From NCBI GenBank assembly GCA_964474435.1, contig CAYYSI010000002.1, forward strand, positions 163,604 through 227,603: a stretch of DNA of 64,000 nucleotides, in the 5' to 3' direction. Positions 2,338-59,892 of the stretch are shown here, one piece after another. The stretch is from an uncultured Candidatus Saccharibacteria bacterium. GTDB lineage: Bacteria > Patescibacteriota > Minisyncoccia > Phycocordibacterales > UBA9973. The position numbers and the translations under genes are program-made. The notes beneath the pieces were generated by a model. It saw only the letters and a program-made list of their open reading frames with translations. It did not search any database and was not told the DNA's origin. Every line of letters begins with the position of its first letter. The first letter of the stretch is position 1.

Positions 2338-3480
2338 ATGAGAAAAGTTGCATGGGCAGGATTGGTAGTAGTGTTGGTGATAGGGGCGGTGGCATTTCGT
2401 GCGCACCTCGTCGAATTTTATAACACGGTTGCACAACGTGACTTGCTCAAGGTTGAAATAGCGGATTTGCATTTGGAGCTTGCAGCACTCTCGATCGGTG
2501 CGCGTCCTGATCCGAGCGGACCAGAGAGTATCGTCGTACTCGGTGGTAGAACCCAAATGACGAGCAAGAACGATGTGTTCGCAAGTAACAACCTACTCTC
2601 ATGGAATCTCATTTCTCCAAACGCGGCTGCAACGACGAAATGGTCTGCACGAATGAATCCCAACACGGTGTATTTCCGCAATCAATACTGGGTTGTCGGC
2701 ACGAGTCACTGGAATAGTCCATCGAATAACATAACGAGTCCCAACGATGTGTGGTATTCACCTGATGGTATCAACTGGAAACTGACGACCGCACGTCCTC
2801 CGTTTGATAACTACTACGCACCATTTACGTCAGACTTTGCCGGATACTATGAATACCGCGCAACGACATTGGGAAATAAAATGTACGTTGTCGGCGGCAA
2901 GCCGGGCAACGGCAACAAGGCAGTGGTGTGGTCATCCCTTGATGGCACCAACTGGAATGTCGAAACAGCAGCAGCTCCATTTGAAAGTCGCACACTCTTT
3001 TCATTGGTCACCCACAGCGGCAAGATGTATGTCATCGGTGGTCGCTACGGCATGAACTCATATGGCAACAGTGGGGTATGGTCATCATCGGACGGTGCAA
3101 CCTGGACACAAGTCACGGCGACTCCTGCGTTTGGTACGTCACTTGCCAATGCAAAGGCGATCAGCTACAACGATCGACTATATCTCCTCGGAGGGGTTAC
3201 ACAAACTGCAACAAGTGGGGCGCAGTCACCCAAGGTATGGGCATCATATGATGGTGCGACATGGACACTCGTGAGTTCAACACTTCCTGATCCAAGTCAT
3301 ACGGGCTTTGATGTACGAGATGCAGTTGTCTCTGATGGCAAGATCTGGCTTGGCGATGCAGCCTATGATGGCGCAAGCAACAGACTGTGGTCAACAACTG
3401 ACGGTATCACCTGGACCCAAAATACCAAGACACCTGAGTGGTCTCCACGGTTCTCATACAGATTCTTGGGCAAAAGATAA
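2338..3480 (+). CDS. Membrane-anchored beta-propeller protein carrying Asp-box (BNR, S-x-D-x-G-x-T-W) repeats and Kelch-like GG motifs.
   Basis: 380 aa. N-terminal TM helix. Repeated motifs YSPDGINWKL, WSSLDGTNWNV, WSSSDGATWTQV, WASYDGATWTLV and WSTTDGITWTQ match the Asp-box consensus. Interleaved MYVVGG / MYVIGG / LYLLGG are Kelch-like. Confidence 0.6.
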   Translation: MRKVAWAGLVVVLVIGAVAFRAHLVEFYNTVAQRDLLKVEIADLHLELAALSIGARPDPSGPESIVVLGGRTQMTSKNDVFASNNLLSWNLISPNAAATTKWSARMNPNTVYFRNQYWVVGTSHWNSPSNNITSPNDVWYSPDGINWKLTTARPPFDNYYAPFTSDFAGYYEYRATTLGNKMYVVGGKPGNGNKAVVWSSLDGTNWNVETAAAPFESRTLFSLVTHSGKMYVIGGRYGMNSYGNSGVWSSSDGATWTQVTATPAFGTSLANAKAISYNDRLYLLGGVTQTATSGAQSPKVWASYDGATWTLVSSTLPDPSHTGFDVRDAVVSDGKIWLGDAAYDGASNRLWSTTDGITWTQNTKTPEWSPRFSYRFLGKR

Positions 3481-3487
3481 AAGGGGA

Positions 3488-3811
3488 ATGTCTACCAAAC
3501 CAGAAACCATCGATTTCATTCTCGCCAAGCTCGGCGACTACGAGCGGTTCACGACGCGCAAGATGTTTGGGGAATATGCGCTCTATGCAGATGGGAAAGT
3601 TGTCGCGCTCGTCTGTGATGATCAGTTCTATATAAAGATCATGCCCGAGAGCGCAGCACTTGCTGATATCTGCGAACAAGACTCGCCGTATCCTGGTGCA
3701 AAACCACACTACCTCGTCGAAGAACATCAGCTCTCGACGATCAAAGAATTACCAGACATATTAATTGCGATCGGGAAGGCGTTACCGAAGAAGCGAATTG
3801 TTAAAAAATAG
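3488..3811 (+). CDS. TfoX/Sxy N-terminal domain protein (competence-regulator-like).
   Basis: The start was re-chosen at ATG 3488 within ORF 3308-3811, preceded by AAGGGGAA. TRKMFGEYALYADGKVVALVCDDQFYIKI matches the TfoX_N pattern RKMFGGYGLY.DGK.FALI.D..LYLK. Confidence 0.55.
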   Translation: MSTKPETIDFILAKLGDYERFTTRKMFGEYALYADGKVVALVCDDQFYIKIMPESAALADICEQDSPYPGAKPHYLVEEHQLSTIKELPDILIAIGKALPKKRIVKK

Positions 3812-3832
3812 TAATTAATATAGTATCTCGAT

Positions 3833-4459
3833 ATGTTTGCAATTATTGGAATGAGTCCAGGAAATGGCTACTTCAAACAAGAAGTAGTAAATCAACTCTT
3901 AGATAAAGCAATAAAAGAGTATTCAGAAATTGGTATTTTTATACCTGACGTTCCAGCAATATCTACATATGTTGCCCTAGGGTATGATCAGACACGAGCA
4001 AGAAGAGATAAGGCGATTCCTCAAGGTAATGCACTAAAAAATAAAGTAGTTCGCGCACTCAAGGAAAAAGAAATTGATCAATCAAAGGTGAGAATATTTG
4101 ATTGGTCTGGAGAAAACATACAAGAAAATCAATCGTATAGAGATAGTTTTTTGTATATTACAAATCTCTACCATTCAAATGGAGATTTCAAAAAAGAAGT
4201 GGATGATACAACATCAGCAGTACTTGTCGATAATGCATTTCGTAAAATACCAATAACACAAAAAGAAATTGAAATTGGTGCACACTATCTTCTTTCAGAG
4301 CTCACGTTTATGATATTTGTTGGAGAATATATAAATAAACAAGATGTTGGATACATATACCACAATCCGTGGCCGATTTTTCAAAATTTTATTGCAGGGA
4401 AATTTGATGGAATAAAGAAAGATCATATCCATTTTATTCTTTTTCCAAAGTTTTCATAA
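3833..4459 (+). CDS. Cyclodipeptide synthase (tRNA-dependent CDPS, AlbC-like).
   Basis: 208 aa. N-terminal AIIGMSPGNGYFKQ aligns with the AlbC catalytic-Ser region ALIGISAGNSYFSQ. HYLLSEL aligns with the AlbC Y178/E182 motif NYVLAEA. YIYHNPWP aligns with the Y202 region LCYHIDTP. Length and spacing fit CDPS. Confidence 0.65.
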   Translation: MFAIIGMSPGNGYFKQEVVNQLLDKAIKEYSEIGIFIPDVPAISTYVALGYDQTRARRDKAIPQGNALKNKVVRALKEKEIDQSKVRIFDWSGENIQENQSYRDSFLYITNLYHSNGDFKKEVDDTTSAVLVDNAFRKIPITQKEIEIGAHYLLSELTFMIFVGEYINKQDVGYIYHNPWPIFQNFIAGKFDGIKKDHIHFILFPKFS

Positions 4460-4499
4460 TAAAAACACCCCGACTTGCGGGGCATTTTTATGTTAGAAC

Positions 4500-5030
4500 T
4501 TATTTCTGAAACTTTTCTTTATATAACTCTTGAGATTTGATAACTGCCGCAAGTGCTTCAGCCTTATCCCCGATCGAGTCGATCGAGACAGGTTTCTTTT
4601 GGATCTGTTTGTAGGTCAAGAAGAAGTGTTCGATTTCTTTGATCGTGTGCTTGTTCACATCCTTGAGGTCTTGGATGTCATCAAAGCGTGGATCCTTTTC
4701 AGGAACTGCAATGATTTTGGCATCAGAGTCACCATCGTCGATCATGTTGATGACTGCTACAGGACGAACTTTTACAAGCACGCCTGGGACAAGTGGATAC
4801 GTTGTGAGTACTACCACATCCAATGGATCGCCGTCTTCCCAGTGACTCTGTGGCATGAAGCCATAGTCAAATGGATAGTCTTGGGAGGTGTGCATTGCAC
4901 GATCGAGCATGATGAGACCAGTTTCTTTGTCGAGCTCGTATTTGTTTTTTGAACCTTTTGGGATTTCGATGATGACGTTGATGATGTTTGGGACATCAGC
5001 ACCCGCGGTGATTTCGTGGAGGAGATTCAT
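4500..5030 (-). CDS. ppa: Inorganic pyrophosphatase (family I).
   Basis: The start was re-chosen at MNLLHEITAGAD within ORF 4500-5189. Motifs IEIPKGSKNKYELDKE, DPLDVVVL and DDGDSDAKIIAVP are typical of family I PPases. Confidence 0.85.
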   Translation of the reverse strand: MNLLHEITAGADVPNIINVIIEIPKGSKNKYELDKETGLIMLDRAMHTSQDYPFDYGFMPQSHWEDGDPLDVVVLTTYPLVPGVLVKVRPVAVINMIDDGDSDAKIIAVPEKDPRFDDIQDLKDVNKHTIKEIEHFFLTYKQIQKKPVSIDSIGDKAEALAAVIKSQELYKEKFQK

Positions 5031-5031
5031 A

Positions 5032-6378
5032 CTAGTTGTTTTGATTATCCATCTGGGCATCGGCGCCTTCGATTTCATTGGTAATAATTTCACCCGTTGA
5101 GATACCTTCGAGGTCTGACTGGTTGTCAGTTTCGACTGGTACATCAGAAGCAATTTCTTCGAGTGCTTCTTCGTCAGTGATCGGCTCATCAGTTGTTTCT
5201 GCAGTTTCGCCTGCGAAGTTTTTCAATGAGACAAAGTCATCGCCTTCGAGTTTTTCATCAGTTGTTTCTACTTCTGCTTCAGTGCCTTTGATGTCGATCT
5301 TCCAGCCAGTGAGGCGTGCTGCGAGGCGTACATTTTGTCCACCTTTACCGATCGCGAGAGAGAGCTGATCAGGAGTGACTTCGATTGTTGCCTTGTGCTC
5401 TGCGTCATCGAGGTTGAGGTCGAGGACCTTGGCAGGAGAGAGGGATTTCTGGACGAATTCACTTGGGTCTGGTGACCATTCGATGATGTCGATCTTTTCG
5501 CCGCCGAGTTCATTCATAACTGTTGAGACACGCACACCTTTTTGTCCGACACATGATCCGACTGGGTCAATGTTTGCGTCGTCAGTCCAGACAGCGATCT
5601 TTGAACGGCTTCCTGGTTCTCGAGCGATAGCTTTGATTTCGACAATGCCACTTGCAACCTCTGGAGACTCATACCCAAAGAGCTTCTCAAGGAACTTGGG
5701 ATGAGTCCGAGAGATGCGAAGGGTGATACCGCGAGGGGATTCCTCTACGTGATAGAGATATCCACGAATACGTGCACCACGCACGTAGCGCTCACCTGGG
5801 ATTTGTTCGTTGGGAGGGATCACACCAGTTGCACGGTTGAAGTCGACGTACACCATGCCGCGCTCCACCTTTTGGATGTGTCCAGAAATGATATCGCCTT
5901 CCTTGGTACCAAACTCATCGAGGATCGATGTGCGTTCTGCCTCGCGAATGCGTTGCATGATGACCTGCTTTGCAGTTTGTGCAGCAATACGACCAAAGTC
6001 GTCGCGTGGTTCGAGGGAGAATACGATCTCATCACCGATTGCAGCATCAGTTTTCATGATACGTGCGTCATCAAGGAGGATGTGCTTCTCTTCATTATAG
6101 ACTTCTCGTTCATCGTCCTCTGCAACTGCTTCTTCGATACCGTCTTCTGCGACAAATCGAACGAGTGTGTCGTCAACAACAGTCTTTACCTGTTCAAAGT
6201 CGACAGTACCAGCATCGAGACTGATGCGTGCGCGGACTACCTGGCCTTTTTTACCGTATTCTTTCTTGTATGCAGCAGCGAGTGACTGTTCAATCGCATC
6301 AATAAGTTTGTCGCGGCCGATGCGTCGTTCACTTTCGAGTTGTTCAAGTGCGAGTTTGAGTGCTTTTATATCCAACAT
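5032..6378 (-). CDS. nusA: Transcription termination/antitermination factor NusA.
   Basis: 448 aa. N-terminal domain, S1 and two KH motifs (GSRSKIAVW, IGKGGQNVRLAARLTGWKIDI), and an acidic C-terminal tail. Confidence 0.9.
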   Translation of the reverse strand: MLDIKALKLALEQLESERRIGRDKLIDAIEQSLAAAYKKEYGKKGQVVRARISLDAGTVDFEQVKTVVDDTLVRFVAEDGIEEAVAEDDEREVYNEEKHILLDDARIMKTDAAIGDEIVFSLEPRDDFGRIAAQTAKQVIMQRIREAERTSILDEFGTKEGDIISGHIQKVERGMVYVDFNRATGVIPPNEQIPGERYVRGARIRGYLYHVEESPRGITLRISRTHPKFLEKLFGYESPEVASGIVEIKAIAREPGSRSKIAVWTDDANIDPVGSCVGQKGVRVSTVMNELGGEKIDIIEWSPDPSEFVQKSLSPAKVLDLNLDDAEHKATIEVTPDQLSLAIGKGGQNVRLAARLTGWKIDIKGTEAEVETTDEKLEGDDFVSLKNFAGETAETTDEPITDEEALEEIASDVPVETDNQSDLEGISTGEIITNEIEGADAQMDNQNN

Positions 6379-20026: not shown

Positions 20027-21481
20027 ATGATTGAACTTGTTGCGCTCATGCTGACTATTGGTGCGCTGTTGTATCACAGCTTTCACACAGGGATCGAGAT
20101 GGTGAGCTATATTGGAGTACTTGTTGCGATATGTATCGGTATCTTTTTCCGATCAGGTCGAGGGTTGGCGTTCGGAGTAATACTTAGTGGGACACTGATA
20201 CTCGGAGCACTTGCAGTCTGGCGGATCGATGTACGGACTCCGCCTGACATATTTGGGAACCGTGCATTTGATGCGACAGTGGTGTCAGTTGATCGCAGGC
20301 TTGATAAAACAAACCTGGTTGTGCGCGACTCTGTGTATGATGAGCGGCTGCAGGCAAGTGTGGTGGGGGATATTGAATTGCTGCCCGGAGACCGGATCAC
20401 CGTACGAGGCAGTGTCGAAGCGCCAGAGGACTTTGTGACAAACTCAGGGCGCATCTTTGGATACCAAGCATACCTGTCGAGCAAGGGGATTGTGGGACTT
20501 GTGAAGAATCCGACGGTTGTACTTGTGAAAGAAGGGCACATATCGCTGTCGCGTGTTGCGACGATCATCAGGTACAAAGTTGCTGATATTTTTGCGGAGC
20601 ATATCTCATTTCCGGTGGACGGCGTGATCGGTGGCATGGTTGTTGGGTACCAAGGTGGACTCCCGCAATCAATCCAAGATCTCTTTCGTGACACCGGCGT
20701 GCTCCATGTCCTCGTGCTCTCCGGCTACAACATCACGCTCCTGGCGGGATTCCTCGCGCTCATATTGAAGTCTCTGCCGTTTCGTCTCCGCACTGCCATC
20801 ACTGCAATCGCCATCATCATGATCGTGCTCGTCAGTGGGGCCGGCGTTGCATCGGTGCGAGCAGGAATCATGGGATCGATAGCCCTTGTTGCAGGGCTGT
20901 CGATCAGGACGTATCAGCCCATGCGGGCATTGTTTGTGTCGTACATAGTATTCTTTTTCATTTCGCCGCACACGATATTTGCTGATCCTGGATTTCATCT
21001 GTCATTTCTCGCAACGCTGTTTATGATTGCCGTGCTGCCCAAAGTTGAACAACTGTTTCACTTCATTCCACAAACCAAACACGTCGATCTGCGCGAGCTC
21101 ATCATGCTTGCAGTATCGGCCCCGATATTTATGTTGCCGTACACGATGTATTTCTCGGGCAACTTTCCACTCGCGTCCCCGTTTGCCAACATGCTGCTCG
21201 CCATCGTCACACCGATCATTATGATTGCGGGGATTATTGTCATTGCACTATCATGGATCACACCACTTGCCGCATTGTTCGGAATGATTATTTCAGTTGC
21301 AGGAAAGGCGGTGCTCTGGTGTCTCGTGCAGTTTGCCAAGCTCCCCATATGGAACACACCACCAATTGCGTGGTGGTGTGTAGTTGGTATCTATGGAGTG
21401 ATTCTTGTCGCGTTATTTAAAAACAATATCGTTACTTATTTTTCGCATCGTCATAGAGTGCTTCGACGGCGGACCAGTTGA
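20027..21481 (+). CDS. comEC: ComEC/Rec2 DNA-uptake channel (DUF4131 plus Competence domain). It lacks the C-terminal metallo-beta-lactamase domain.
   Basis: 484 aa and polytopic. GVLHVLVLSGYNITLLAGF matches the ComEC competence-domain signature (..LLVISGLHI..). An N-terminal OB-like region is present. Confidence 0.7.
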   Translation: MIELVALMLTIGALLYHSFHTGIEMVSYIGVLVAICIGIFFRSGRGLAFGVILSGTLILGALAVWRIDVRTPPDIFGNRAFDATVVSVDRRLDKTNLVVRDSVYDERLQASVVGDIELLPGDRITVRGSVEAPEDFVTNSGRIFGYQAYLSSKGIVGLVKNPTVVLVKEGHISLSRVATIIRYKVADIFAEHISFPVDGVIGGMVVGYQGGLPQSIQDLFRDTGVLHVLVLSGYNITLLAGFLALILKSLPFRLRTAITAIAIIMIVLVSGAGVASVRAGIMGSIALVAGLSIRTYQPMRALFVSYIVFFFISPHTIFADPGFHLSFLATLFMIAVLPKVEQLFHFIPQTKHVDLRELIMLAVSAPIFMLPYTMYFSGNFPLASPFANMLLAIVTPIIMIAGIIVIALSWITPLAALFGMIISVAGKAVLWCLVQFAKLPIWNTPPIAWWCVVGIYGVILVALFKNNIVTYFSHRHRVLRRRTS

Positions 21482-39331: not shown

Positions 39332-39958
39332 ATGAAAAAGATAATAATAACCCCTACGCTCAAGGAGTACATACTCCTTCCTATTATTCCTCCACTCAGT
39401 ATTTATCTCTGTCTTCAATTTCTCCCACAACTTGCTGATTTTCTTAATGGCACAGTGATTGTTTTTGTTTGTGTATATATTATAGCTGCTATACATATCC
39501 GAAAATGGACATGGAAACAGCTTGGTGTTGAATTTGGCAATATTACATTAGCGAAAATAGGACTTTGTTTTGCTGGTCTCGCAGCAGGTATTGGTTGGCT
39601 ATGGATTCTCGGACATCTTAATCCAGAAAAATGGGATTTTAGTACGCAAAAAAATATCGGTCTTGTTAAATGGGCCGGACTTGGAGTCTTCGGACAAGTT
39701 CTTATTTTTCAGGGATATTTGCCCCAGCTCGGAAATAGTTTAGAGATAAGACCCTGGATCAACTTTAGTTGGAACGCAATTTCTTTTATAGGAATGCATC
39801 TTATTTTCAGTGATCTTGGAAAAGTTATGCCTATTATTATTCCCGCGTCTATCCTTTTTGCAGGACTGTATTGGAAATGCCGTAATAGCCTTTTGGTATC
39901 GATTGTTCATATGCCACTGACCGCTATTACTATTCTGGAACTTATTTTTAAAATCTGA
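39332..39958 (+). CDS. CPBP/Abi-like polytopic membrane protein, inserted between rplE and rpsZ.
   Basis: 208 aa with ~6 TM helices. FIGMH fits motif 2 (F...H) of CPBP intramembrane proteases and SIVHMPLT may be motif 3. The EE..R motif 1 is not evident. AT-rich. Confidence 0.4.
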   Translation: MKKIIITPTLKEYILLPIIPPLSIYLCLQFLPQLADFLNGTVIVFVCVYIIAAIHIRKWTWKQLGVEFGNITLAKIGLCFAGLAAGIGWLWILGHLNPEKWDFSTQKNIGLVKWAGLGVFGQVLIFQGYLPQLGNSLEIRPWINFSWNAISFIGMHLIFSDLGKVMPIIIPASILFAGLYWKCRNSLLVSIVHMPLTAITILELIFKI

Positions 39959-51114: not shown

Positions 51115-53316
51115 ATGAATCGTCGCATCCACATTTTTTTTATTCCTGCAGTCGTGTGTATTGGTGCACTCGGTATCACGTATTTATTGTGGATGTTTAC
51201 CAAAGCCAGTCTCGCATCTCAAGCAACGGCACAATTTCAATCGCGCAGTACTGAAATCAAATCATTGATTTCAAAAAAGATGGAGGTGTATACCGGACTC
51301 CTTTCTGGGGCACAAGGACTCTTTGCTGCGTCAGACACCGTTGAGGCTGATGAGTGGAGTTCGTATGTCGCCAAACTTGATTTAGCACATCAGTACAAAG
51401 GAGCCGCAGGAATGTCGTTCATCAAGCGCGTACCTAAAGCTGAGGTTGCCTCATTTCCATATACTATTTATCCTTCCACCAAAAAAGAGGTGTATTATCC
51501 ATTTGCGTATGTGAGTTCTATAACTGACACCGCCAAGAAAACACTTGGCTTTGATGCAAGCTCAGAATCAAAACGCTTTGATGCACTCATGACTGCCGCA
51601 AAGACTGATACACCAACGGCATCTGCAGTCGTGCTCAGTGTCAGTGCACAGCTCCCATCTTTTTCTATCTATGCACCGATTTATACAAATGGCGCACGTC
51701 ACACGACGCAATCTGAACGCATGAATGCACTCAAGGGATTTGTGATTATCGGATTTCGCGTCGAGGAGTTGTTTGCTGATATTGCCGCAGACCCAACCTT
51801 TGACAAAAACATCGATCTCGAGATTTATGATGCAACGTCCGAGGGGCAGGCAACTGCCGAGACACTGATTTATGATACGGACAAACAGGCACACGCACTG
51901 GAACGCACTGCATCTCGCGTGACGACTGTGCAGACGATCAAGGTTGCAGGTCGCACGTGGACACTCTACTTTTCTGCGGATGAAGGCTATCAGTTCAATA
52001 ATATTGAATCATACGCACCACTCGTTGTGCTCTTTGGGGGGATACTGGTCAGTATTATTTTGACATGGCTCATGTATATCTATGCTGCATCGCGCAACCG
52101 CGCTATTGCACTGGCGAACAAAATCACCAAAGATCTTGCAGCGCAAACGGTGGAGCTCAAACGAGAGACCAAGGCGCTCGCTGAAATAAAGGCGAAAGAT
52201 GAGGCAATCCTCAGTTCAATCGGGGATGGTGTTGCGGTTGCAGATACGACGGGCAAACTCATTTATTGGAATACGGCAGCAGAAGAAATTGTGGGAATAA
52301 AATTTGGCGAAACACAGTCAGACGATTGGGAAAAAACGTACGGCGTATTTTATCCTGATGAAAAAACGCCGATGCCCGGAGAGGAGCAAGCGCTCGCACT
52401 TGCCGTCAAAGGCCAAACGATTGATGCAATGCCGGAGTTCATCAGAAATGCTGGCGTACCAGAAGGCCGCCACATCGCAGTCAGTGCCAAGCCAGTGAAG
52501 CTTGCCGACGGCACCGTGCTTGGTGCAGTTGCGATATTTCGCGATGTAACCAAGGAATTCGAAGTCGACAAGGCAAAGACTGAGTTTGTCTCGCTCGCAT
52601 CTCATCAACTGCGCACACCACTGACTGCGATCAACTGGTATTCCGAAATGTTGGGAACGACGGGCAAGCTTACCAAAGATCAACAATCATTTGCAGCAGA
52701 AATCAACACTGCATCGACGCGTATGTCGGACCTCGTGAACTCACTCCTCAACGTCTCTCGGCTTGAGCTCGGCACATTTGCAATCGAACCAGAGCCTGCA
52801 GATATTGTCGCAATTGCAGAAGCGGCGATCCATGAACAAGAGATAACATTCAAGACAAAGAAGCAGACATTTACCTTTACGCATGATGATGCACTTCCAA
52901 CACTTGCGCTCGACAAACGACTTATTCACATCACAATCCAAAACCTGCTTTCAAATGCATCAAAGTATACGCCTGATGGCGGTGAAGTAACGCTTGCAAT
53001 TACCAAGAAAGGTAAGGGTATTCGTATCACATGTATAGACAACGGCTACGGCATTCCAAAGGCACAGCAAAAAGACATGTTCAAGAAACTCTTCCGTGCA
53101 GACAATGTCAAAAAACTTGCGATCGAAGGCACTGGGCTTGGTCTCTACATTATCAAAAGCATCATTGAAGCAGCTGGATCCACCATTTCTTTCAAATCAA
53201 CCGAAGGAAAAGGAACGACATTTACCATTGATATTCCCGCGGGTGGTATGAAATCAAAAATAGGTGATCGTACACTCTCGCAGAGTGTGGGGGATTCTGC
53301 TATACTCAAGAAATAA
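51115..53316 (+). CDS. Sensor histidine kinase with an extracytoplasmic CHASE-like domain, PAS, HisKA and HATPase_c.
   Basis: 733 aa with two TM helices flanking a ~270-aa periplasmic domain. H-box SHQLRTPLTAI. N/G boxes NLLSNASKYTPDGG ... DNGYGIP ... GTGLGLYIIK. Confidence 0.8.
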   Translation: MNRRIHIFFIPAVVCIGALGITYLLWMFTKASLASQATAQFQSRSTEIKSLISKKMEVYTGLLSGAQGLFAASDTVEADEWSSYVAKLDLAHQYKGAAGMSFIKRVPKAEVASFPYTIYPSTKKEVYYPFAYVSSITDTAKKTLGFDASSESKRFDALMTAAKTDTPTASAVVLSVSAQLPSFSIYAPIYTNGARHTTQSERMNALKGFVIIGFRVEELFADIAADPTFDKNIDLEIYDATSEGQATAETLIYDTDKQAHALERTASRVTTVQTIKVAGRTWTLYFSADEGYQFNNIESYAPLVVLFGGILVSIILTWLMYIYAASRNRAIALANKITKDLAAQTVELKRETKALAEIKAKDEAILSSIGDGVAVADTTGKLIYWNTAAEEIVGIKFGETQSDDWEKTYGVFYPDEKTPMPGEEQALALAVKGQTIDAMPEFIRNAGVPEGRHIAVSAKPVKLADGTVLGAVAIFRDVTKEFEVDKAKTEFVSLASHQLRTPLTAINWYSEMLGTTGKLTKDQQSFAAEINTASTRMSDLVNSLLNVSRLELGTFAIEPEPADIVAIAEAAIHEQEITFKTKKQTFTFTHDDALPTLALDKRLIHITIQNLLSNASKYTPDGGEVTLAITKKGKGIRITCIDNGYGIPKAQQKDMFKKLFRADNVKKLAIEGTGLGLYIIKSIIEAAGSTISFKSTEGKGTTFTIDIPAGGMKSKIGDRTLSQSVGDSAILKK

Positions 53317-53687
53317 TGAACACTGGAAAACACATTCTTATTGCCGAAGATGAGAAGCCGCTTTCTCGAGCACTTGAACTAAAACTCGCAAGCGAGGGAT
53401 TTGTCATTGATACTGCATTTGATGGTGAGACGGTCAAAGAAAAGATTGCTGCAAACACGTACGACATTATTCTCATGGACCTCATGATGCCCAACCATGA
53501 TGGCTTTGCAGTGATCGAGGATCTCAAGTCTCGCGGCATCACGACTCCAGTTGTCATCATGTCCAACCTCAGCCAAGACTCTGATCGCAACCGTGCCGCG
53601 ATCGCTGGTGCAAGTCACTACTTCGTCAAGGCAGATGTGAAGCTCGCCGATATTGTTAGCTATATCAAAGAAACACTTAGTCATTAA
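53316..53687 (+). CDS. Single-domain response regulator (CheY-like receiver).
   Basis: 123 aa. ILIAEDE...DIILMDLMMP(N)HDG ... VVIMSN are the canonical receiver motifs. Translationally coupled to the kinase (overlapping stop/start). Confidence 0.8.
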   Translation: MNTGKHILIAEDEKPLSRALELKLASEGFVIDTAFDGETVKEKIAANTYDIILMDLMMPNHDGFAVIEDLKSRGITTPVVIMSNLSQDSDRNRAAIAGASHYFVKADVKLADIVSYIKETLSH

Positions 53688-53694
53688 AATCACC

Positions 53695-55362
53695 ATGTTT
53701 GACCAGGCTCTTTATCAAAACATTCTCCTCGATCAAAACTACATTAGTCCCGCTGATGCGGCAGCTGCCAGTGCATACGAGGCAGCAGGACGGGGGACAT
53801 TTATCGAATACCTTCTCCAAAACGATATTCTCAATGAGTCGACCCTTGGCCTTGCGATTGCCGAGCACTACAACACGACGTTTGCAGACCTTGGTACTCG
53901 ACCACCATCTGATGTCGACATGGCTCGCATTCCCGAAGATATTTCCAAGAAATACCGCATCGTATTTATCGATGGTACCGAGACCGCAGTCCGAGTTGCA
54001 AGTGATACGCCTGATAATGCAGAGCTTCCAGGCGTCCTTGCGACTCTCTTTCCGAACATACCGGTGACGATATCGTTTGCATTTACGACTGCGATCGACA
54101 CCGTGCTCAGCCATTACCAAAAGGCGCTCAATACCCGATTTTCTGATATTATCAAAGGCGACAAACGCGTTGCCCCAGAAATCTTTGATGAGATCATCAA
54201 AGACGCGATTTCATTTCGTGCATCCGACATTCACTTTGAGCCCGCACTGACCAAGGCGATCGTCAGATTCCGTGTTGACGGCATGCTGAGGTTGGCAGGC
54301 GAGATCCCACGTGAGTATTACGAAAATGTATTGAACCGCATCAAGATCCAATCAAATCTCCGTACTGACGAGCACTTTGCACCACAGGATGGCGCGATCC
54401 GATTTGTTTCGGCAGCTACCACAGTCGATCTCCGTGTGTCCATTGTTCCGACCCTTGATGGCGAAAAGGTCGTGATCCGCGTGCTTGCAGAATACGTCAA
54501 AGGGCTCACCTTTGCAGATCTCGGATTTTCTGATCGCAACATCGCACTCCTTGAAGCGGCAGCGCGCAAGCCGTTTGGGATGATCATCGTCTCTGGACCG
54601 ACTGGATCTGGAAAGACGACGACATTGTATTCACTCATCAAGAAACTCAATACGCCCGAAGTCAACATCACAAGTATTGAAGACCCGGTTGAGTACCGTA
54701 TGATTGGTGCAAACCAGATCCAGGTTAACCCCAAGACCGATCTCACCTTTGCCAAAGGGTTGCGCGCCATCGTTCGTCAGGACCCCAACATTATTTTGGT
54801 CGGAGAAATCCGTGATACGGAGACTGCAGAGACCGCAGTGAATGCCGCATTGACTGGCCACCTGCTCCTTTCTACATTCCATGCAAATGATGCAGCAACA
54901 ACGATCCCGAGACTTTTGGAAATGTCGATCGAGCCATTCCTTCTTGCATCGACCGTAGAGCTCATCATCGCACAGCGACTCGTGCGCACTATCTGTGAAT
55001 CCTGTAAGCAAAGTTACAAGACAACACCTGCCAAACTCACAGAGCTCTTTCCGCAAGCAAAAAATTATTTCTCAGGCGCATCACTCACGCTCTACAAAGG
55101 CAACGGCTGTACTGCATGCAACAACACAGGATACCTCGGACGCACGTCTATCATCGAGATCATTTCAGTCGACAAGTCACTTCGCGAGCTCATTGTGACT
55201 CGGCCATCGGCAGGCGAGATTTGGGATGCGGCCAAGCGTGCAGGAGCACAGTCACTCTTTGATGATGGTATCAGCAAGGTCAAAGTTGGTGTCACCACGG
55301 TCGAAGAAATCCTGCGTGTCGCTTCTCCTGATCAGACTATTCAAATCCCCAAGAAGGTATGA
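53695..55362 (+). CDS. pilB: Type IV pilus / type II secretion assembly ATPase (PilB/GspE family).
   Basis: The start was re-chosen at MFDQALYQ within ORF 53653-55362. N-terminal GSPII_E_N domain. Walker A GPTGSGKTTTL. GEIRD...A..AA.TGH and the tetracysteine motif CESCK...C.AC. Confidence 0.85.
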   Translation: MFDQALYQNILLDQNYISPADAAAASAYEAAGRGTFIEYLLQNDILNESTLGLAIAEHYNTTFADLGTRPPSDVDMARIPEDISKKYRIVFIDGTETAVRVASDTPDNAELPGVLATLFPNIPVTISFAFTTAIDTVLSHYQKALNTRFSDIIKGDKRVAPEIFDEIIKDAISFRASDIHFEPALTKAIVRFRVDGMLRLAGEIPREYYENVLNRIKIQSNLRTDEHFAPQDGAIRFVSAATTVDLRVSIVPTLDGEKVVIRVLAEYVKGLTFADLGFSDRNIALLEAAARKPFGMIIVSGPTGSGKTTTLYSLIKKLNTPEVNITSIEDPVEYRMIGANQIQVNPKTDLTFAKGLRAIVRQDPNIILVGEIRDTETAETAVNAALTGHLLLSTFHANDAATTIPRLLEMSIEPFLLASTVELIIAQRLVRTICESCKQSYKTTPAKLTELFPQAKNYFSGASLTLYKGNGCTACNNTGYLGRTSIIEIISVDKSLRELIVTRPSAGEIWDAAKRAGAQSLFDDGISKVKVGVTTVEEILRVASPDQTIQIPKKV

Positions 55363-56468
55363 GCACCTCTCCCCGCACAGGATGGACGCGTCTGAAGCAC
55401 GATCTGTTTCTCAAGTCGCGCGCCTTTGGGCTCCACAATCAGTCAAACTTTTTTATTCAAAACCTCGCCGTGCTCATCGGGGCAGGGATGTCGATCTCTA
55501 CCGCACTCTCGTCAGTCTATGATGAAGTTCGGTCACGTCGCATGCGCTCTGCGATTCGCGATATCATCACAGATGTTGATAATGGTCTGCCACTCTCCAA
55601 AGCCATTGCTCGTGCAGAGATCGTCTCGCCCCACACACTCTCGCTCATCGAGCTCGGAGAACTCTCGGGTCGACTCTCTCAAAATCTCCAAGTTGCCGCA
55701 CTTCAAAATGAAAAGGAAGCAGTCTTTCGTTCTCGTGTGCGCTCCGCGCTTGCGTACTCCTCATTCGTCTTCGTCGTGGCACTTGTCGTCGGGATTGGAG
55801 TCGCATGGTATGTTCTGCCCAAGATCGCCGTCTTTTTCACTGAGCTTGATGCATCACTTCCGCCATTAACGCGGACCATCATTAGTATTGGCACCTTTCT
55901 TCAAAATTATGGATACATCTTTGTCCCTGCGTTTTTTATCATCTGCGCGATTTTATTTTACTTCCTCTTTTCATTTCCCAAGACCAAGTTTATCGGGCAT
56001 ACCATCCTCTTTCATATTCCTATTATCAAACGACTGATACTTGAGACAGAGGTTGCACGATTTGGATTCCTTGCGGGTAGCATGGTCAAAGCCGGCGTGC
56101 CGATCTACACCGTCTTTCAGCTCCTGCCGAGTACGACGACCTTTGGCAACTATCGCGCGTTTTATACATTCATTTCTGAACGTATCATGGAAGGTTCGTC
56201 ATTTCAGCGCGCATTCAACGACTACGAGCGTATCGGTGCTATCATGCCGCTCTCTGTGCGCCAGATGATCATTGCTGCCGAACAGTCCGGGACACTTTCG
56301 GATACGCTTACCAAAGTGGGGGATATGTACGAAGCCAAGGTCGAAACAACGTCGCGCAATATTCCTGCATTTCTTGAGCCGGCACTTCTCCTTATCATCG
56401 GTACCATGGTTGGCATTCTTGCACTCGGTATTATCATGCCGGTCTATCAGATTGGTAATAGCTTCTAA
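55359..56468 (+). CDS. pilC: Type IV pilus / T2SS inner-membrane platform protein (PilC/GspF family).
   Basis: 369 aa with two T2SSF repeats (...LIELGELSGRLSQ... / ...IAAEQSGTLSDTL...) and 3 TM helices. Confidence 0.85.
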   Translation: MSTSPRTGWTRLKHDLFLKSRAFGLHNQSNFFIQNLAVLIGAGMSISTALSSVYDEVRSRRMRSAIRDIITDVDNGLPLSKAIARAEIVSPHTLSLIELGELSGRLSQNLQVAALQNEKEAVFRSRVRSALAYSSFVFVVALVVGIGVAWYVLPKIAVFFTELDASLPPLTRTIISIGTFLQNYGYIFVPAFFIICAILFYFLFSFPKTKFIGHTILFHIPIIKRLILETEVARFGFLAGSMVKAGVPIYTVFQLLPSTTTFGNYRAFYTFISERIMEGSSFQRAFNDYERIGAIMPLSVRQMIIAAEQSGTLSDTLTKVGDMYEAKVETTSRNIPAFLEPALLLIIGTMVGILALGIIMPVYQIGNSF

Positions 56469-56899
56469 TGAGTATGCAGCGAGGATTCTCTATCATCGAA
56501 GTACTCGTCACGATCTCGATCACTGCAGTACTTCTTGCAGTGTCAGTGAATGCGTATGCAAGTGTCAGGCAAACCCGTGACCCACTTCGCGTGAGCTATA
56601 TCTATAGCGACGCACTCAAACAAGCCATAGTGAAGGCGCGCGCGATGGACAATGACCTCTCGTGGGGAGTGCGCATCAACAGCGGTGCGATCGTCGTCTT
56701 TTCGGGGACTTCATACGCCACACGTGCAACCTCTCTCGACAAGACCTATTCATTCCCAACGACGGTCACTGCAACCGGTATTACCGAGGTCGTCTTCAAC
56801 AAATTTTCTGGACGAACAGTGACATCGGGCACCACGACCTTTAGCAATAGTTTCAGTTCGAAATCGGTCACCCTCACGAGCGGGGGAGCAATACAATGA
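56468..56899 (+). CDS. Pseudopilin or minor pilin with a class III (prepilin-type) signal.
   Basis: 143 aa. MSMQRG|FSIIEVLVTISITAVLL, with G at -1 and E at +5. Confidence 0.7.
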   Translation: MSMQRGFSIIEVLVTISITAVLLAVSVNAYASVRQTRDPLRVSYIYSDALKQAIVKARAMDNDLSWGVRINSGAIVVFSGTSYATRATSLDKTYSFPTTVTATGITEVVFNKFSGRTVTSGTTTFSNSFSSKSVTLTSGGAIQ

Positions 56900-57711
56900 G
56901 AAAATATTTTACACAATCAGGGATGACTGTTGTCGAAGCTGTCGTTGCGATCGGCGTGTTTTCGCTCATTGTTGGTATTGGATATCAACTCTATATCACA
57001 TCCAACAGACTTATCGTGCGTGCCGATACCAAGGCCCAGGCACTTGCGCTGGCCGAAGAAGGACTCGAAGCCGCTCGATCGATCCGGGATACTTCATACG
57101 CATCTTTGACACTGGGGACATCAGGGATTGCACAAAGTGGCAACAAATGGAATCTCTCGGGCTCATCTGATACGACGGGGATCTTTACGCGCACGCTCTT
57201 GATCGGGCTCGTCAGTGCCGATGAAAAATCAGTGCGGTCGACGGTGTCATGGAACGAACGAGGTACTGCATTATCAGTCGTTCTCAATACGAGTCTTACC
57301 AACTGGCGCAAGATCTCCTCCTCGATGTCCGCGGGGCTTACGGTTATTAGTAGTACTGCCAACCTCTCACTTTTGAGCAGTCTTCGATTACTTACAGGGA
57401 TCGGACTCTCGTCTACTGGTACGCCGTCCACGATCACGATTACGAGCATCCAAACGAGTTGGACAAAAAGTTCTCGTACTTTGCAGCAGATTCGCAGTCC
57501 CAACGGCACTGCCATTATGACCGGGTCATATGCATCAGGCACAAATGTCACGCTCACAACCCCGATCACGATGACTGGGGTAGGGACCCGTGGCCTCGAG
57601 TTCTACTTTAATGCGTCGATGAATGGCAATAATACTATTACAGTTATACTCACGTTCAGTGATGGTACAACCCAGACCTTTACTATTACCAATCCGCCAA
57701 CAGGGGTATAA
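56896..57711 (+). CDS. Pseudopilin or minor pilin with a class III signal.
   Basis: 271 aa. MRKYFTQSG|MTVVEAVVAIGVFSLIV. Confidence 0.65.
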   Translation: MRKYFTQSGMTVVEAVVAIGVFSLIVGIGYQLYITSNRLIVRADTKAQALALAEEGLEAARSIRDTSYASLTLGTSGIAQSGNKWNLSGSSDTTGIFTRTLLIGLVSADEKSVRSTVSWNERGTALSVVLNTSLTNWRKISSSMSAGLTVISSTANLSLLSSLRLLTGIGLSSTGTPSTITITSIQTSWTKSSRTLQQIRSPNGTAIMTGSYASGTNVTLTTPITMTGVGTRGLEFYFNASMNGNNTITVILTFSDGTTQTFTITNPPTGV

Positions 57712-57713
57712 GT

Positions 57714-58229
57714 ATGAAAAAATATTCATCACAACACGGTATGACGCTCATGGAGACCATCATTGCAATCGCGATCATGGCAATGCTCGTGCTTGCTGCA
57801 GCATCTCTGATATCCACATTCATGAAAAGCGAGCGCAGAAATCGTGCGATCTCTGAAACGGAATGGCAGGCGACGTCTCTGATCGAGCAGATCGAGCAAA
57901 GTGCGCGAAACGCAACCAGTATCACCACTCCCGCAACTGCGGGTAGTAGTGGGAGTACGCTTACACTTGCACTCACTGGTGTGACCGCAGAAAATCCAAC
58001 AACGTACTCGCTTTCATCGGGTGCACTCTTTGTGATAAAGGGGTTAGAGCCATCTACCCAGATTTCTTCGTCTCTCGTGACAGTGACATCATTCACCGTA
58101 ACAAATCTCACTGCAACTGGCACCAATGGTACGGTACGCATAGCACTCACACTTTCGTATAAAAATCCTTCCAATCAACCCGAGCTTGCATATACCACCA
58201 CGCGGTATACTACTGTTACCATACGATGA
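57714..58229 (+). CDS. Pseudopilin or minor pilin with a class III signal.
   Basis: 171 aa. MKKYSSQHG|MTLMETIIAIAIMAMLV. Confidence 0.65.
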   Translation: MKKYSSQHGMTLMETIIAIAIMAMLVLAAASLISTFMKSERRNRAISETEWQATSLIEQIEQSARNATSITTPATAGSSGSTLTLALTGVTAENPTTYSLSSGALFVIKGLEPSTQISSSLVTVTSFTVTNLTATGTNGTVRIALTLSYKNPSNQPELAYTTTRYTTVTIR

Positions 58230-59376: not shown

Positions 59377-59505
59377 TGAATTGAATTGTTTACGAATAAT
59401 TACAAAATGAACTGTCTCTAGAAAACGACTCCTTCCTCAACCTCGCTCTTTTGTACTTTTATAGTATCACCCTTTGATTAAAAAGTCAAGGTGATATTTT
59501 AATTG

Positions 59506-59892
59506 TGGAACTGGGGGGAATCGAACCCCCGTGCAAAAATGCAGAATATACAGGTCTACATGTGTAGCAAGGTTTGATGTTTAGAACGTGATCTTGAAAC
59601 AATGCAAAACAATCACATTCGAGTCTCGTCATTTTGGCGCACTACTGAGACGAGTAGTACTGCCTATCCCGATGAATGTTGCCGCGACCTATCTATCGGA
59701 AGTCGATAGAAGCGACACCAGCTTGGCCTAAGTTAGGCGAAGATTGGAATGGCTCCGGCCATACTAAAGTATGGTGAAGCCACCTTAGCGGAGTTCTTTG
59801 CAGATATCCTGTTGGACGACGTTTTGCGAGGGTACGTCCATGCTCGACATGCGTATATATTCGAAACAGTTTTGTCGAAACCAAACAGCCCC
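59506..59892 (-). ncRNA. ssrA: tmRNA (ssrA).
   Basis: The minus strand reads 5'-GGGGCUGUUUGGUUUCGAC..., against E. coli GGGGCUGAUUCUGGAUUCGAC. It ends ...GGGGGUUCGAUUCCCCCCAGUUCCA, a T-arm plus acceptor 3' strand that pairs with the 5' GGGGCUG. The in-frame tag ORF ends ...AGAIPIFA-UAA, and the stop sits inside hairpin GCCUAACUUAGGC. Genomic CAA replaces CCA at the 3' end. The gene lies immediately downstream of smpB. Confidence 0.7.

Follow-up and report, generated by a model that had tools for sequence, protein, structure and literature searches.

A predicted NYH-type cyclodipeptide synthase with a short N-terminus, encoded by a stand-alone gene in a CPR bacterium

Closest described cyclodipeptide synthases

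The cyclodipeptide synthases (CDPSs) of the NYH subfamily with known structures comprise AlbC (PDB 3OQV), YvmC (3OQH), BtCDPS (6ZTU), the Staphylococcus haemolyticus cLL synthase (6EZ3) and Rv2275 (2X9Q). The CDPS predicted from the window (the whole 64 000-nucleotide stretch of DNA analysed here) shares with them the fold (TM 0.71–0.85), the catalytic Ser/Tyr/Glu/Tyr residues and the N-Y-H signature, and would share their ping-pong mechanism on two aminoacyl-tRNAs. It differs from them in sequence (only 16–20% identity in Foldseek structural alignments), in lacking their 20–30 N-terminal residues, in its pocket residues and in having neither a cyclodipeptide oxidase nor a P450 clustered with it. 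Its host is a CPR bacterium, whereas the solved NYH enzymes come from an actinobacterium or a firmicute.

Four unclassified NYH CDPSs from CPR metagenomes were listed by Gondry et al. (2018): OGZ44804.1 (Ryanbacteria), OGY31047.1 (Andersenbacteria), OGY85379.1 (Kerfeldbacteria) and OGI43181.1 (Moranbacteria) (PMC5816076, Data Set 4). They are uncharacterised and their activity is listed as not predictable (PMC5816076). All four fall in the same clade as the window CDPS. The pockets of this clade in that list (LGMPWFIY/TGCGRMP, VGLAWFLY/TAVGKWT and IGFAWFLY/TGVGKWE) follow the same pattern as those of the window enzyme (IGFPWFMY/TAVDNWP). Two of the four carry a C-terminal 'ABC transporter' (SBP_bac_3) domain, whereas the window CDPS lies on a separate, stand-alone branch.

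A Parcubacteria enzyme of the XYP subfamily, ParcuCDPS (PDB 7QB8), has been fully characterised; it makes cHP and cHE and is an example of a CPR CDPS with activity both in E. coli and in vitro (PMC5816076, PMC7613923). The preliminary description of the locus therefore overstated its novelty, CPR CDPSs having been listed since 2017–2018. ParcuCDPS comes from the same CPR superphylum and is likewise without an obvious cluster, but it differs in subfamily (Pro at position 203), length (230 residues), the position of its serine (Ser26), a Ser/Asp dyad and a rearranged β3/α3 region. It superposes on the window model with a TM score of only 0.63 and was not found by a single-sequence search at E below 0.01.

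A putative CDPS from Porphyromonas gingivalis (PDB 9GUN, 207 residues, released 2026-04-08), on which no paper was found in a literature search, is as short as the window CDPS. Its catalytic loop also lies at the extreme N-terminus (window residues 2–168 align to chain residues 2–169; TM 0.77), but it is only 22% identical, and the cLL synthases of Bacillus and Staphylococcus are closer in sequence to the window CDPS.

We read the window gene as encoding an active NYH-type CDPS that would release a plain cyclodipeptide, that probably reached a Paceibacteria lineage as a promoter-less insert and that selection appears to have kept there. From sequence, model and analogy with solved enzymes, the probability of this reading was put at about 85%.

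Predicted fold, active site and substrate pockets

The open reading frame starts with ATG and encodes 208 residues (Table 1). The product matched the Pfam CDPS family PF16715 with 100.5 bits (E = 1.5e-28; cut-off 27 bits) and TIGR04539 with 123.4 bits (E = 9.6e-36; cut-off 45 bits). The AF2 model (pLDDT 97.2, pTM 0.92) was compared with the PDB using Foldseek; all 49 matches with E ≤ 0.001 were CDPSs, and the next was a TyrRS variant (4nd7, E = 9e-3). The best structural matches were NYH enzymes (TM 0.78–0.85 to 6ez3, AlbC, YvmC and BtCDPS), spanning about 205 of the 208 residues, and the XYP enzymes matched less well. The model has the Rossmann-like fold of CDPSs, which is akin to that of the catalytic domain in class-Ic aminoacyl-tRNA synthetases. 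The preliminary description had named a profile search and a predicted structure as checks; both bore it out, and together they confirm, at the level of sequence and model, that the gene is a genuine, well-conserved CDPS and a member of a known family.

Table 1. Coordinates of the CDPS gene, its active-site codons and its neighbours in the window
Feature	Position	Strand	Basis
Kelch-repeat protein, 380 residues, hydrophobic N-terminus; first gene of the likely Kelch–TfoX_N–CDPS transcription unit	2338..3480	+	Pfam Kelch families
TfoX_N-domain-only protein, 107 residues; neighbour by inherited gene order	3488..3811	+	PF04993, 46 bits
21-nt leader from TfoX_N stop codon to CDPS start; left edge of the putative insert	3812..3832	+	Sequence
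CDPS gene, predicted NYH type, short N-terminus, stand-alone form	3833..4459	+	ORF, profile matches, model, GC
Codons for S8-P9-G10-N11: catalytic Ser (AlbC S37) and N of the NYH signature (N40)	3854..3865	+	Alignments to homologues and solved CDPSs
Codons for Y152-L-L-S-E156 (AlbC Y178, E182)	4286..4300	+	Invariant Y152 and E156; AlbC offset 26
Codons for Y176-H177 (AlbC Y202-H203; Y and H of the NYH signature)	4358..4363	+	Invariant; alignments to solved CDPSs
G+C-rich hairpin with flanking A and T runs, intrinsic-terminator-like, between the convergent CDPS and ppa; right edge of the putative insert	4459..4491	.	
Inorganic pyrophosphatase gene (ppa)	4500..5030	-	PF00719, 188.7 bits
nusA; used for taxonomy and as dN/dS yardstick	5032..6378	-	

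The size had been called right for a CDPS. With 208 residues the protein lies at the short end of the CDPS range, without the 20–30 N-terminal residues of AlbC or YvmC. The catalytic Ser lies at residue 8–15 in nearly all of 120 homologues, so the short N-terminus is a clade-wide trait. A mis-called start was rejected because of this trait and of an in-frame TAG four codons 5' of the ATG.

The three signature motifs are present and map to AlbC residues as first proposed: GMSPGNGYF contains S8 (AlbC S37) and N11 (N40), HYLLSEL contains Y152 and E156 (Y178 and E182), and YIYHNPWP contains Y176 and H177 (Y202 and H203). The mapping was taken from phmmer alignment ranges (window CDPS 3–161 versus AlbC 32–187) and, for three further NYH CDPSs, from alignments at residue level; Y176-H177 aligns with the 'YH' of 'AYHxPW' in 6ez3, YvmC and BtCDPS. 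All six residues are invariant in 40 aligned homologues and, bar one Tyr-to-Phe change, in the full-length genomic loci examined. N11, Y176 and H177 correspond to the Asn40, Tyr202 and His203 (AlbC numbering) of the NYH subfamily. Membership of the XYP subfamily was rejected, His177 standing where ParcuCDPS has Pro.

The acceptor arm of the tRNA is bound by a basic patch on helix α4 of CDPSs. By sequence position only, a predicted helix at residues 53–78 of the window protein carries R55, R57, R58, K60, K69, K71, R74 and K77, with K79 following; K60 is invariant in the 40 homologues.

By analogy with AlbC and YvmC, a first aminoacyl-tRNA would be bound and its aminoacyl group moved onto Ser8, with the side chain in pocket P1. 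A second aminoacyl-tRNA, using pocket P2, would then give a dipeptidyl-enzyme, and intramolecular cyclisation aided by Tyr176 would release a 2,5-diketopiperazine; Tyr152 and Glu156 would complete the active site. We infer these steps from the conserved residues and the fold.

Both pockets of the window CDPS (P1 IGFPWFMY, P2 TAVDNWP) are lined by hydrophobic and aromatic residues, and P1 is nearly invariant across the clade. The pocket mapped for one Kerfeldbacteria locus (L030), VGLAWFLY/TAVGKWT, is the same as the published motif of another Kerfeldbacteria member. The nearest published pockets, compared by motif only, are those of CDPS 82 from Streptomyces varsoviensis (LGFPWFMF/LKAGQFE; makes cPL), Nvec2 from Nematostella vectensis (LGFPWYIF/ERVKRWP; makes cWL and cWF), CDPS 84 (LGLPWFLF; makes cFI) and CDPS 77 (LGFPWLVF; makes cLV), the first two being the most similar. 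The window pockets most resemble those of NYH enzymes making Pro-, Leu-, Phe- or Trp-containing cyclodipeptides. The xGxPW motif in P1 is, according to the authors of the prediction scheme, not reliably predictive and is found in enzymes of differing specificities. The published P1/P2 rules were tried and gave no firm product call, the window motif belonging to the NYH set that they leave unclassified; sequence does not allow a reliable prediction of the exact product.

Distribution of the clade and readings of its function

The clade was surveyed as 74 genomic loci in species-representative genomes. CPR/Patescibacteria labels account for 43 of these, and nine are archaeal, mostly DPANN, one of them with a Methanosarcinales label. 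Eight are Melainabacteria/Obscuribacterales, four are labelled Bdellovibrionales or Bdellovibrionota (with a fifth labelled delta proteobacterium) and one is from Dependentiae. The taxon labels are coarse for many of the metagenome-assembled genomes concerned. In about half of the relatives an SBP_bac_3 domain is fused at the C-terminus, an arrangement not seen in characterised CDPSs; the stand-alone branch of the window CDPS has Pro at P1 position 67, and the fused branch has Ala there. No separate SBP_bac_3 gene was found in the window by tblastn with four fused C-terminal domains (best E = 0.07).

All open reading frames within 5 kb of the CDPS were clustered for 72 loci. No neighbour was common to the loci as a whole, and no tailoring enzyme was found. 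The sole recurring real neighbour was an AsnC-type regulator, at seven archaeal loci only; the other recurring clusters were out-of-frame reading frames inside the CDPS or its fused domain. Literature searches on the clade and on the SBP fusion returned nothing, and a phrase search of the 2018 global CDPS genomics paper gave no match on clusters without tailoring.

A cyclodipeptide acting as a diffusible signal or host-manipulating molecule in an episymbiotic lifestyle would be compatible with the proposed chemistry, and we hold this idea only tentatively, as unlikely. It draws on the stand-alone gene without tailoring enzymes, on the near-invariance of P1 across groups, on strong purifying selection (see below) and on the host-dependent or predatory habit of many of the groups (CPR, DPANN, Melainabacteria, Bdellovibrionota and Dependentiae). 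The spread over such lineages is compatible with signalling but does not show it; the lineage counts are raw counts under coarse labels. The CDPS is also absent from two close relatives (L078 and L079), so it is dispensable for the lifestyle.

A CDPS fold might instead put aminoacyl-tRNA to a different use, for instance by passing the aminoacyl group to another acceptor or by forming a linear dipeptide. The uncharacterised status and unusual spread of the clade, the SBP_bac_3 fusions and the missing tailoring genes would suit such an activity. However, the residues for both acyl transfers and cyclisation (the S37, Y178, E182, Y202, N40 and H203 equivalents) are invariant, the two pockets are there and have the composition usual for CDPSs, and the NYH fold match covers nearly the whole chain. 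We consider such chemistry improbable beside diketopiperazine formation.

Insertion into a housekeeping locus

The gene sits alone between a TfoX_N gene and ppa/nusA, as the preliminary description had it. Its neighbours encode the Kelch and TfoX_N proteins, inorganic pyrophosphatase (ppa, called as 176 residues in locus L001), NusA, trigger factor, a GNAT and secreted hypothetical proteins. The description of the gene as stand-alone also held: no tailoring enzyme such as a cyclodipeptide oxidase, P450, methyltransferase or prenyltransferase was found among these neighbours. Elsewhere in the window, the annotated genes serve housekeeping, pilus and competence functions. The only RNA element is a tmRNA, far off at 59503–59892. 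Searches for defence systems and phage families gave no PADLOC or PHROGs matches, and a scan of IMG/VR for phage carriage gave no relative. The best named relatives of NusA (77–87% identity) were Candidatus Pacebacteria, Paceibacterota, Nomurabacteria and Patescibacteria; the window was therefore placed in the Paceibacteria/Parcubacteria, and the guess of a CPR genome holds.

In L078 (NusA 87% identical) the order is TfoX_N, a 36-nt hairpin spacer, ppa and nusA, without a CDPS; its hairpin is analogous to that of the window, where a terminator-like site was called at 4468–4482 and the same hairpin appears as inverted repeat I5. In L080 (NusA 83% and CDPS 81% identical) the arrangement is that of the window, with the same 21-nt leader, which is absent from L078. 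It would follow that the CDPS entered this Paceibacteria (CPR) genome alone, as a single-gene insertion, and that TfoX_N belongs to the older gene order that received it. The GC content is 0.32 for the CDPS gene versus 0.46 for the rest of the window and breaks sharply at the TfoX_N stop codon. Apart from the terminator hairpin, a look for mobile-element signs at the insertion revealed just short repeats attributable to chance. Identical gene order with a 100% identical CDPS was found in two independent SRA assemblies, so the locus is not an assembly artefact.

The gaps from Kelch to TfoX_N and from TfoX_N to CDPS are 7 and 21 nt. No plus-strand promoter match was found in the leader, so co-transcription of the CDPS with the upstream Kelch–TfoX_N genes is likely; no Shine–Dalgarno-like sequence was found before the CDPS. 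On the preferred reading of an inserted, active CDPS, a promoter-less segment of about 650 nt would have arrived with the TfoX_N stop codon on its left and the terminator hairpin preceding ppa on its right, would probably be read through from the Kelch–TfoX_N genes and would since have been retained under strong purifying selection. The end product is predicted to be a plain, unmodified cyclodipeptide because no tailoring gene is present.

Between the window and L080 the CDPS has dN 0.113 and dS 1.28 (dN/dS about 0.09), and nusA has dN 0.114 and dS 1.43; judged from these alignments, purifying selection on the CDPS is as strong as on nusA. Its GC3 stays low (0.20 versus about 0.5) despite saturated synonymous divergence.

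The preliminary description had drawn attention to the TfoX_N neighbour. PF04993 (cut-off 30.1 bits) covers residues 15–71 of that protein, which has TfoX_N only; without TfoX_C, the assignment as a TfoX/Sxy competence regulator was rejected. A functional pair with the CDPS for competence or DNA uptake could be argued from the shared strand, the short gap, the probable single transcript and the ComEC and type IV pilus genes elsewhere in the window, but it is very improbable: synteny with L078 contradicts it, base composition breaks between the two genes, TfoX_N adjoins the CDPS in none of the 72 other loci and two genomes have this kind of CDPS between dnaK and dnaJ instead. The association is best taken as incidental. 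That the CDPS is a decaying, N-terminally truncated remnant or a binning or assembly artefact, as its short N-terminus and foreign base composition might suggest, is scarcely credible and already contradicted by the nusA-like dN/dS, the intact catalytic residues, the same short N-terminus in the homologues and the solved 9gun, and the identical locus in independent assemblies.

A bolder extension of the preferred reading, which we think unlikely, is that the whole clade makes one conserved cyclodipeptide for host sensing or manipulation (in CPR, DPANN, predatory or parasitic Obscuribacterales, Bdellovibrionota and Dependentiae). The gene would spread by landing in housekeeping operons (TfoX_N/ppa, dnaK/dnaJ) as an AT-rich cassette of one gene without a promoter, and half of the lineages would have it joined to an SBP_bac_3 domain acting as a cytoplasmic sensor that binds amino acids.

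To our knowledge, CPR bacteria have few known metabolic functions, and their host interactions are largely unresolved. A strongly conserved CDPS diverting charged tRNAs into a small, stable, membrane-permeant molecule would be one of the few putative candidates for a secreted CPR effector or signal. For the enzyme family, the clade represents an NYH branch in which the N-terminus is minimal, the P1 pocket hardly varies and fusion to a solute-binding domain recurs, and assignment of its product would fill a gap in the published specificity-prediction scheme.

Identity, predicted structure and substrate pockets

The open reading frame of the putative cyclodipeptide synthase (CDPS) starts with ATG, encodes 208 residues and cannot be extended because an in-frame TAG lies four codons upstream. 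The protein scored 100.5 bits against Pfam CDPS (PF16715; E = 1.5e-28, cut-off 27) and 123.4 bits against NCBIfam TIGR04539 (tRNA-dependent cyclodipeptide synthase; cut-off 45). Residues 3-161 were aligned by phmmer with AlbC 32-187, and the YH of YIYHNPW paired with that of AYHxPW in three other enzymes of the NYH subfamily. On the basis of these alignments, S8, N11, Y152, E156, Y176 and H177 correspond to AlbC S37, N40, Y178, E182, Y202 and H203; the three CDPS motifs read in the preliminary description were right.

A structural model was calculated with AlphaFold2 from an input of 40 homologues and was very confident (mean pLDDT 97.2, pTM 0.92). Using the model as the Foldseek query, all 49 PDB matches at E <= 0.001 were CDPS structures, in agreement with a predicted CDPS fold. 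The best were NYH structures (BtCDPS, TM 0.84-0.85; YvmC, 0.81-0.83; AlbC, 0.79; Staphylococcus haemolyticus cLL synthase, 0.76-0.83); those of the XYP subfamily were poorer (ParcuCDPS, TM 0.63). The first match outside the CDPSs was a tyrosyl-tRNA synthetase variant, which is in keeping with the fold. CDPS structures could be aligned with about 205 of the 208 modelled residues, so that the missing N-terminal segment lies outside the core. Two outcomes named beforehand as refuting the identification, a missing HMM match and a wrong fold, did not occur. The identification as a CDPS is right and robust.

Every residue needed for the CDPS ping-pong reaction is present and invariant, and canonical cyclodipeptide synthesis is therefore the most likely function. 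By analogy with AlbC and YvmC biochemistry (summarized in PMC7613923 and PMC12945691), a first aminoacyl-tRNA would acylate Ser8, a second would give the dipeptidyl-enzyme, and Tyr176 would help cyclization to the diketopiperazine.

The substrate pockets were mapped using published positions (PMC5816076; P1, 33, 35, 65, 67, 119, 185, 186 and 200; P2, 152, 155, 156, 159, 204, 206 and 207). P1 consists of I4, G6, F36, P38, W91, F159, M160 and Y174, and P2 of T126, A129, V130, D133, N178, W180 and P181. The mapping is supported by a Kerfeldbacteria locus (L030), the pockets of which (VGLAWFLY/TAVGKWT) are identical to the published motif of another Kerfeldbacteria clade member. P1 is nearly invariant across the clade ([IV]G[MLF][AP]WF[LM]Y) and P2 has three variable positions. 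The nearest characterized pockets belong to enzymes making cPL, cFI, cLV and cWL/cWF. As a P1 motif of this type is not reliably predictive according to the authors of the scheme, the assignment was limited to a probable cyclodipeptide composed of hydrophobic or aromatic residues. Its proposed role as a signal is hypothetical.

Insertion and maintenance of the gene

The same gene arrangement and an identical CDPS were found in two independent SRA assemblies. ppa and nusA lie downstream on the opposite strand. The gene has a GC content of 0.32, compared with 0.46 elsewhere in the window, with the change in composition located exactly at the stop codon of TfoX_N. Three relatives were compared. 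In L078 (a 545 kb contig; NusA 87% identical) the order is nusA, ppa, a 36-nt hairpin-containing spacer and TfoX_N, with the CDPS absent; in L079 both TfoX_N and the CDPS are missing from this site; L080 (NusA 83%, CDPS 81%) shares the arrangement of the window and the same 21-nt leader. From this comparison, a ~650-nt insert with the CDPS as its only reading frame entered an ancestor of the lineages of the window and L080, landing between the hairpin and the stop codon of TfoX_N. The TfoX_N gene, noted earlier as the neighbour of the CDPS, is a bystander, since it adjoins ppa/nusA in L078. Neither flanking repeats nor mobile-element genes marking the insertion were found at the locus, and a scan of viral contigs yielded no CDPS relatives.

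Between the window and L080, dN and dS were 0.113 and 1.28 for the CDPS and 0.114 and 1.43 for nusA. The gene has thus diverged at the pace of the genome and under purifying selection just as strong; it is not in decay, and its arrival was not very recent. Its GC3 is 0.20-0.29 versus 0.46-0.55 in nusA and tfoX; this low value persists although synonymous sites are saturated between the orthologues (dS ~1.3), and the composition shows no drift towards that of the genome.

The leader contains no promoter-like site and the gene is followed by a terminator-like hairpin, so that the CDPS is likely to be transcribed by read-through from the upstream Kelch and TfoX_N genes. The same pattern of a single gene within an operon was observed in two CPR genomes (L003 and L017), in which a stand-alone CDPS lies between dnaK (ending 21-25 nt upstream) and dnaJ (starting 10-23 nt downstream) on the same strand, with GC ~0.29 versus 0.39-0.40 in the flanks (a deficit of ~0.10). 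These arrangements suggest a cassette without a promoter that becomes established within expressed operons.

All ORFs within 5 kb of the CDPS were clustered for 72 loci. There was neither a neighbour common to the loci as a whole nor any tailoring enzyme, which bears out the stand-alone character first described. The sole recurrent neighbour, at seven archaeal loci only, was an AsnC-type protein, possibly an amino-acid-responsive regulator of the CDPS.

The NusA relatives are 77-87% identical, the named ones being Candidatus Pacebacteria, Paceibacterota, Nomurabacteria or Patescibacteria; the genome, correctly termed CPR-like, belongs more precisely to the Paceibacteria (Parcubacteria). CPR-typical genes in the window include ComEC, a type IV pilus, a ribosomal-protein operon, tmRNA (adjoined by smpB, judging from a homologous contig) and many secreted hypothetical proteins. 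ComEC and the pilus are typical CPR DNA-uptake/attachment machinery and have no connection with the CDPS locus. A second low-GC single gene, encoding a membrane protein, is wedged in the ribosomal-protein operon between L5 and S8, the usual place of S14 (GC ~0.38 versus ~0.47 in the flanks), and is followed by ~360 nt with no called gene.

Coordinates of features in the window and at the compared loci
Feature	Location	Strand	Remarks
CDPS, 208 aa	window 3833-4459	+	
TfoX_N-only protein, 107 aa	window 3488-3811		Upstream of CDPS; TfoX_N 46 bits
Terminator-like hairpin	window 4468-4482		3' of CDPS
ComEC	window 20027-21481		
Multi-pass membrane protein, 208 aa	window 39332-39958	+	No Pfam, PADLOC or PHROGs match
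CHASE-PAS histidine kinase and response regulator	window 51115-53700		Ahead of pilus genes
Type IV pilus set (T2SSE, T2SSF, pilins)	window 53653-58229		
tmRNA	window 59503-59892	-	Rfam 128.7 bits; tag peptide AKNSAKVASPYFSMAGAIPIFA
CDPS orthologue	L080 969-1595		
dnaK-CDPS-dnaJ	L003 2867-5694; L017 6072-9543		
CDPS-SBP_bac_3 fusions	L009 7989-9371; L052 7989-9431; L043 3081-4517		~35 further loci
AsnC/Lrp-type HTH protein, ~345 aa	L060, L061, L064, L066, L067, L068, L071	Opposite to CDPS, divergent	150-200 nt upstream of CDPS; archaeal, mostly DPANN

Distribution of the clade and relation to known enzymes

In a set of 5.8 billion proteins, 191 homologues were detected. Of the 120 listed, nearly all are 200-220 residues long and have their catalytic serine at position 8-15, so that a short N-terminus characterizes the clade as a whole. 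S8, P9, G10, N11, Y13, F14, D39, P41, Y152, E156, Y174, Y176, H177 and W180 are invariant in 40 aligned members. Among 1.84 billion cluster representatives searched with a profile, only 799 CDPS-like clusters reached E <= 0.001, and 99 reached E <= 1e-30.

With each GTDB species represented by a single genome, scanning gave 75 loci, or 74 after a distant Streptomyces CDPS (26% identity) was left out. By taxon labels, many of them coarse, 43 are CPR/Patescibacteria, nine archaeal (mostly DPANN: Woesearchaeota, Micrarchaeota and Nanoarchaeota), eight Melainabacteria/Obscuribacterales, four Bdellovibrionales/Bdellovibrionota and one 'delta proteobacterium'; the others are one Dependentiae, one Bryobacterales, three Proteobacteria and four unnamed bacteria. 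At 38 of 72 analysed loci the CDPS is fused to a C-terminal family-3 solute-binding domain of ~265 residues (SBP_bac_3; PF00497, 58-70 bits), giving ~470-480 residues in total with no position for a signal peptide. Carriers include Obscuribacterales, Bryobacterales and one Woesearchaeota locus; the window CDPS is the stand-alone form. The literature on such a fusion notes an 'ABC transporter domain' and no more. Three groups were obtained in a neighbour-joining tree: a group of archaeal sequences together with that of Dependentiae; a stand-alone, CPR-only group placing the window protein with L003, L004, L005, L006, L017 and L069; and a large group of mostly fused CDPSs.

The novelty originally claimed was too strong, since many CDPSs of CPR genomes were catalogued in a 2018 survey (PMC5816076), four of them from this clade (Ryanbacteria, Andersenbacteria, Kerfeldbacteria and Moranbacteria), listed as unclassified NYH CDPSs, none characterized. 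CDPS 90 of Parcubacteria bacterium RAAC4_OD1_1, which makes cHP and cHE and for which crystal structures exist (PMC5816076; PMC7613923), is XYP-type and distant from the window CDPS; the Porphyromonas gingivalis protein 9GUN is as short. No later literature was found on the clade, the SBP_bac_3 fusion or 9GUN.

The window CDPS is a member of a known enzyme family and falls in a branch that has been catalogued but not studied. The analysis adds to the original finding a single-gene insertion, purifying selection together with persistent AT-richness, a near-invariant P1 pocket, SBP_bac_3 fusions in sister lineages and a clade concentrated in CPR, DPANN and predatory bacteria. Given all of these points, the enzyme is a reasonable and cheap target for expression and LC-MS.
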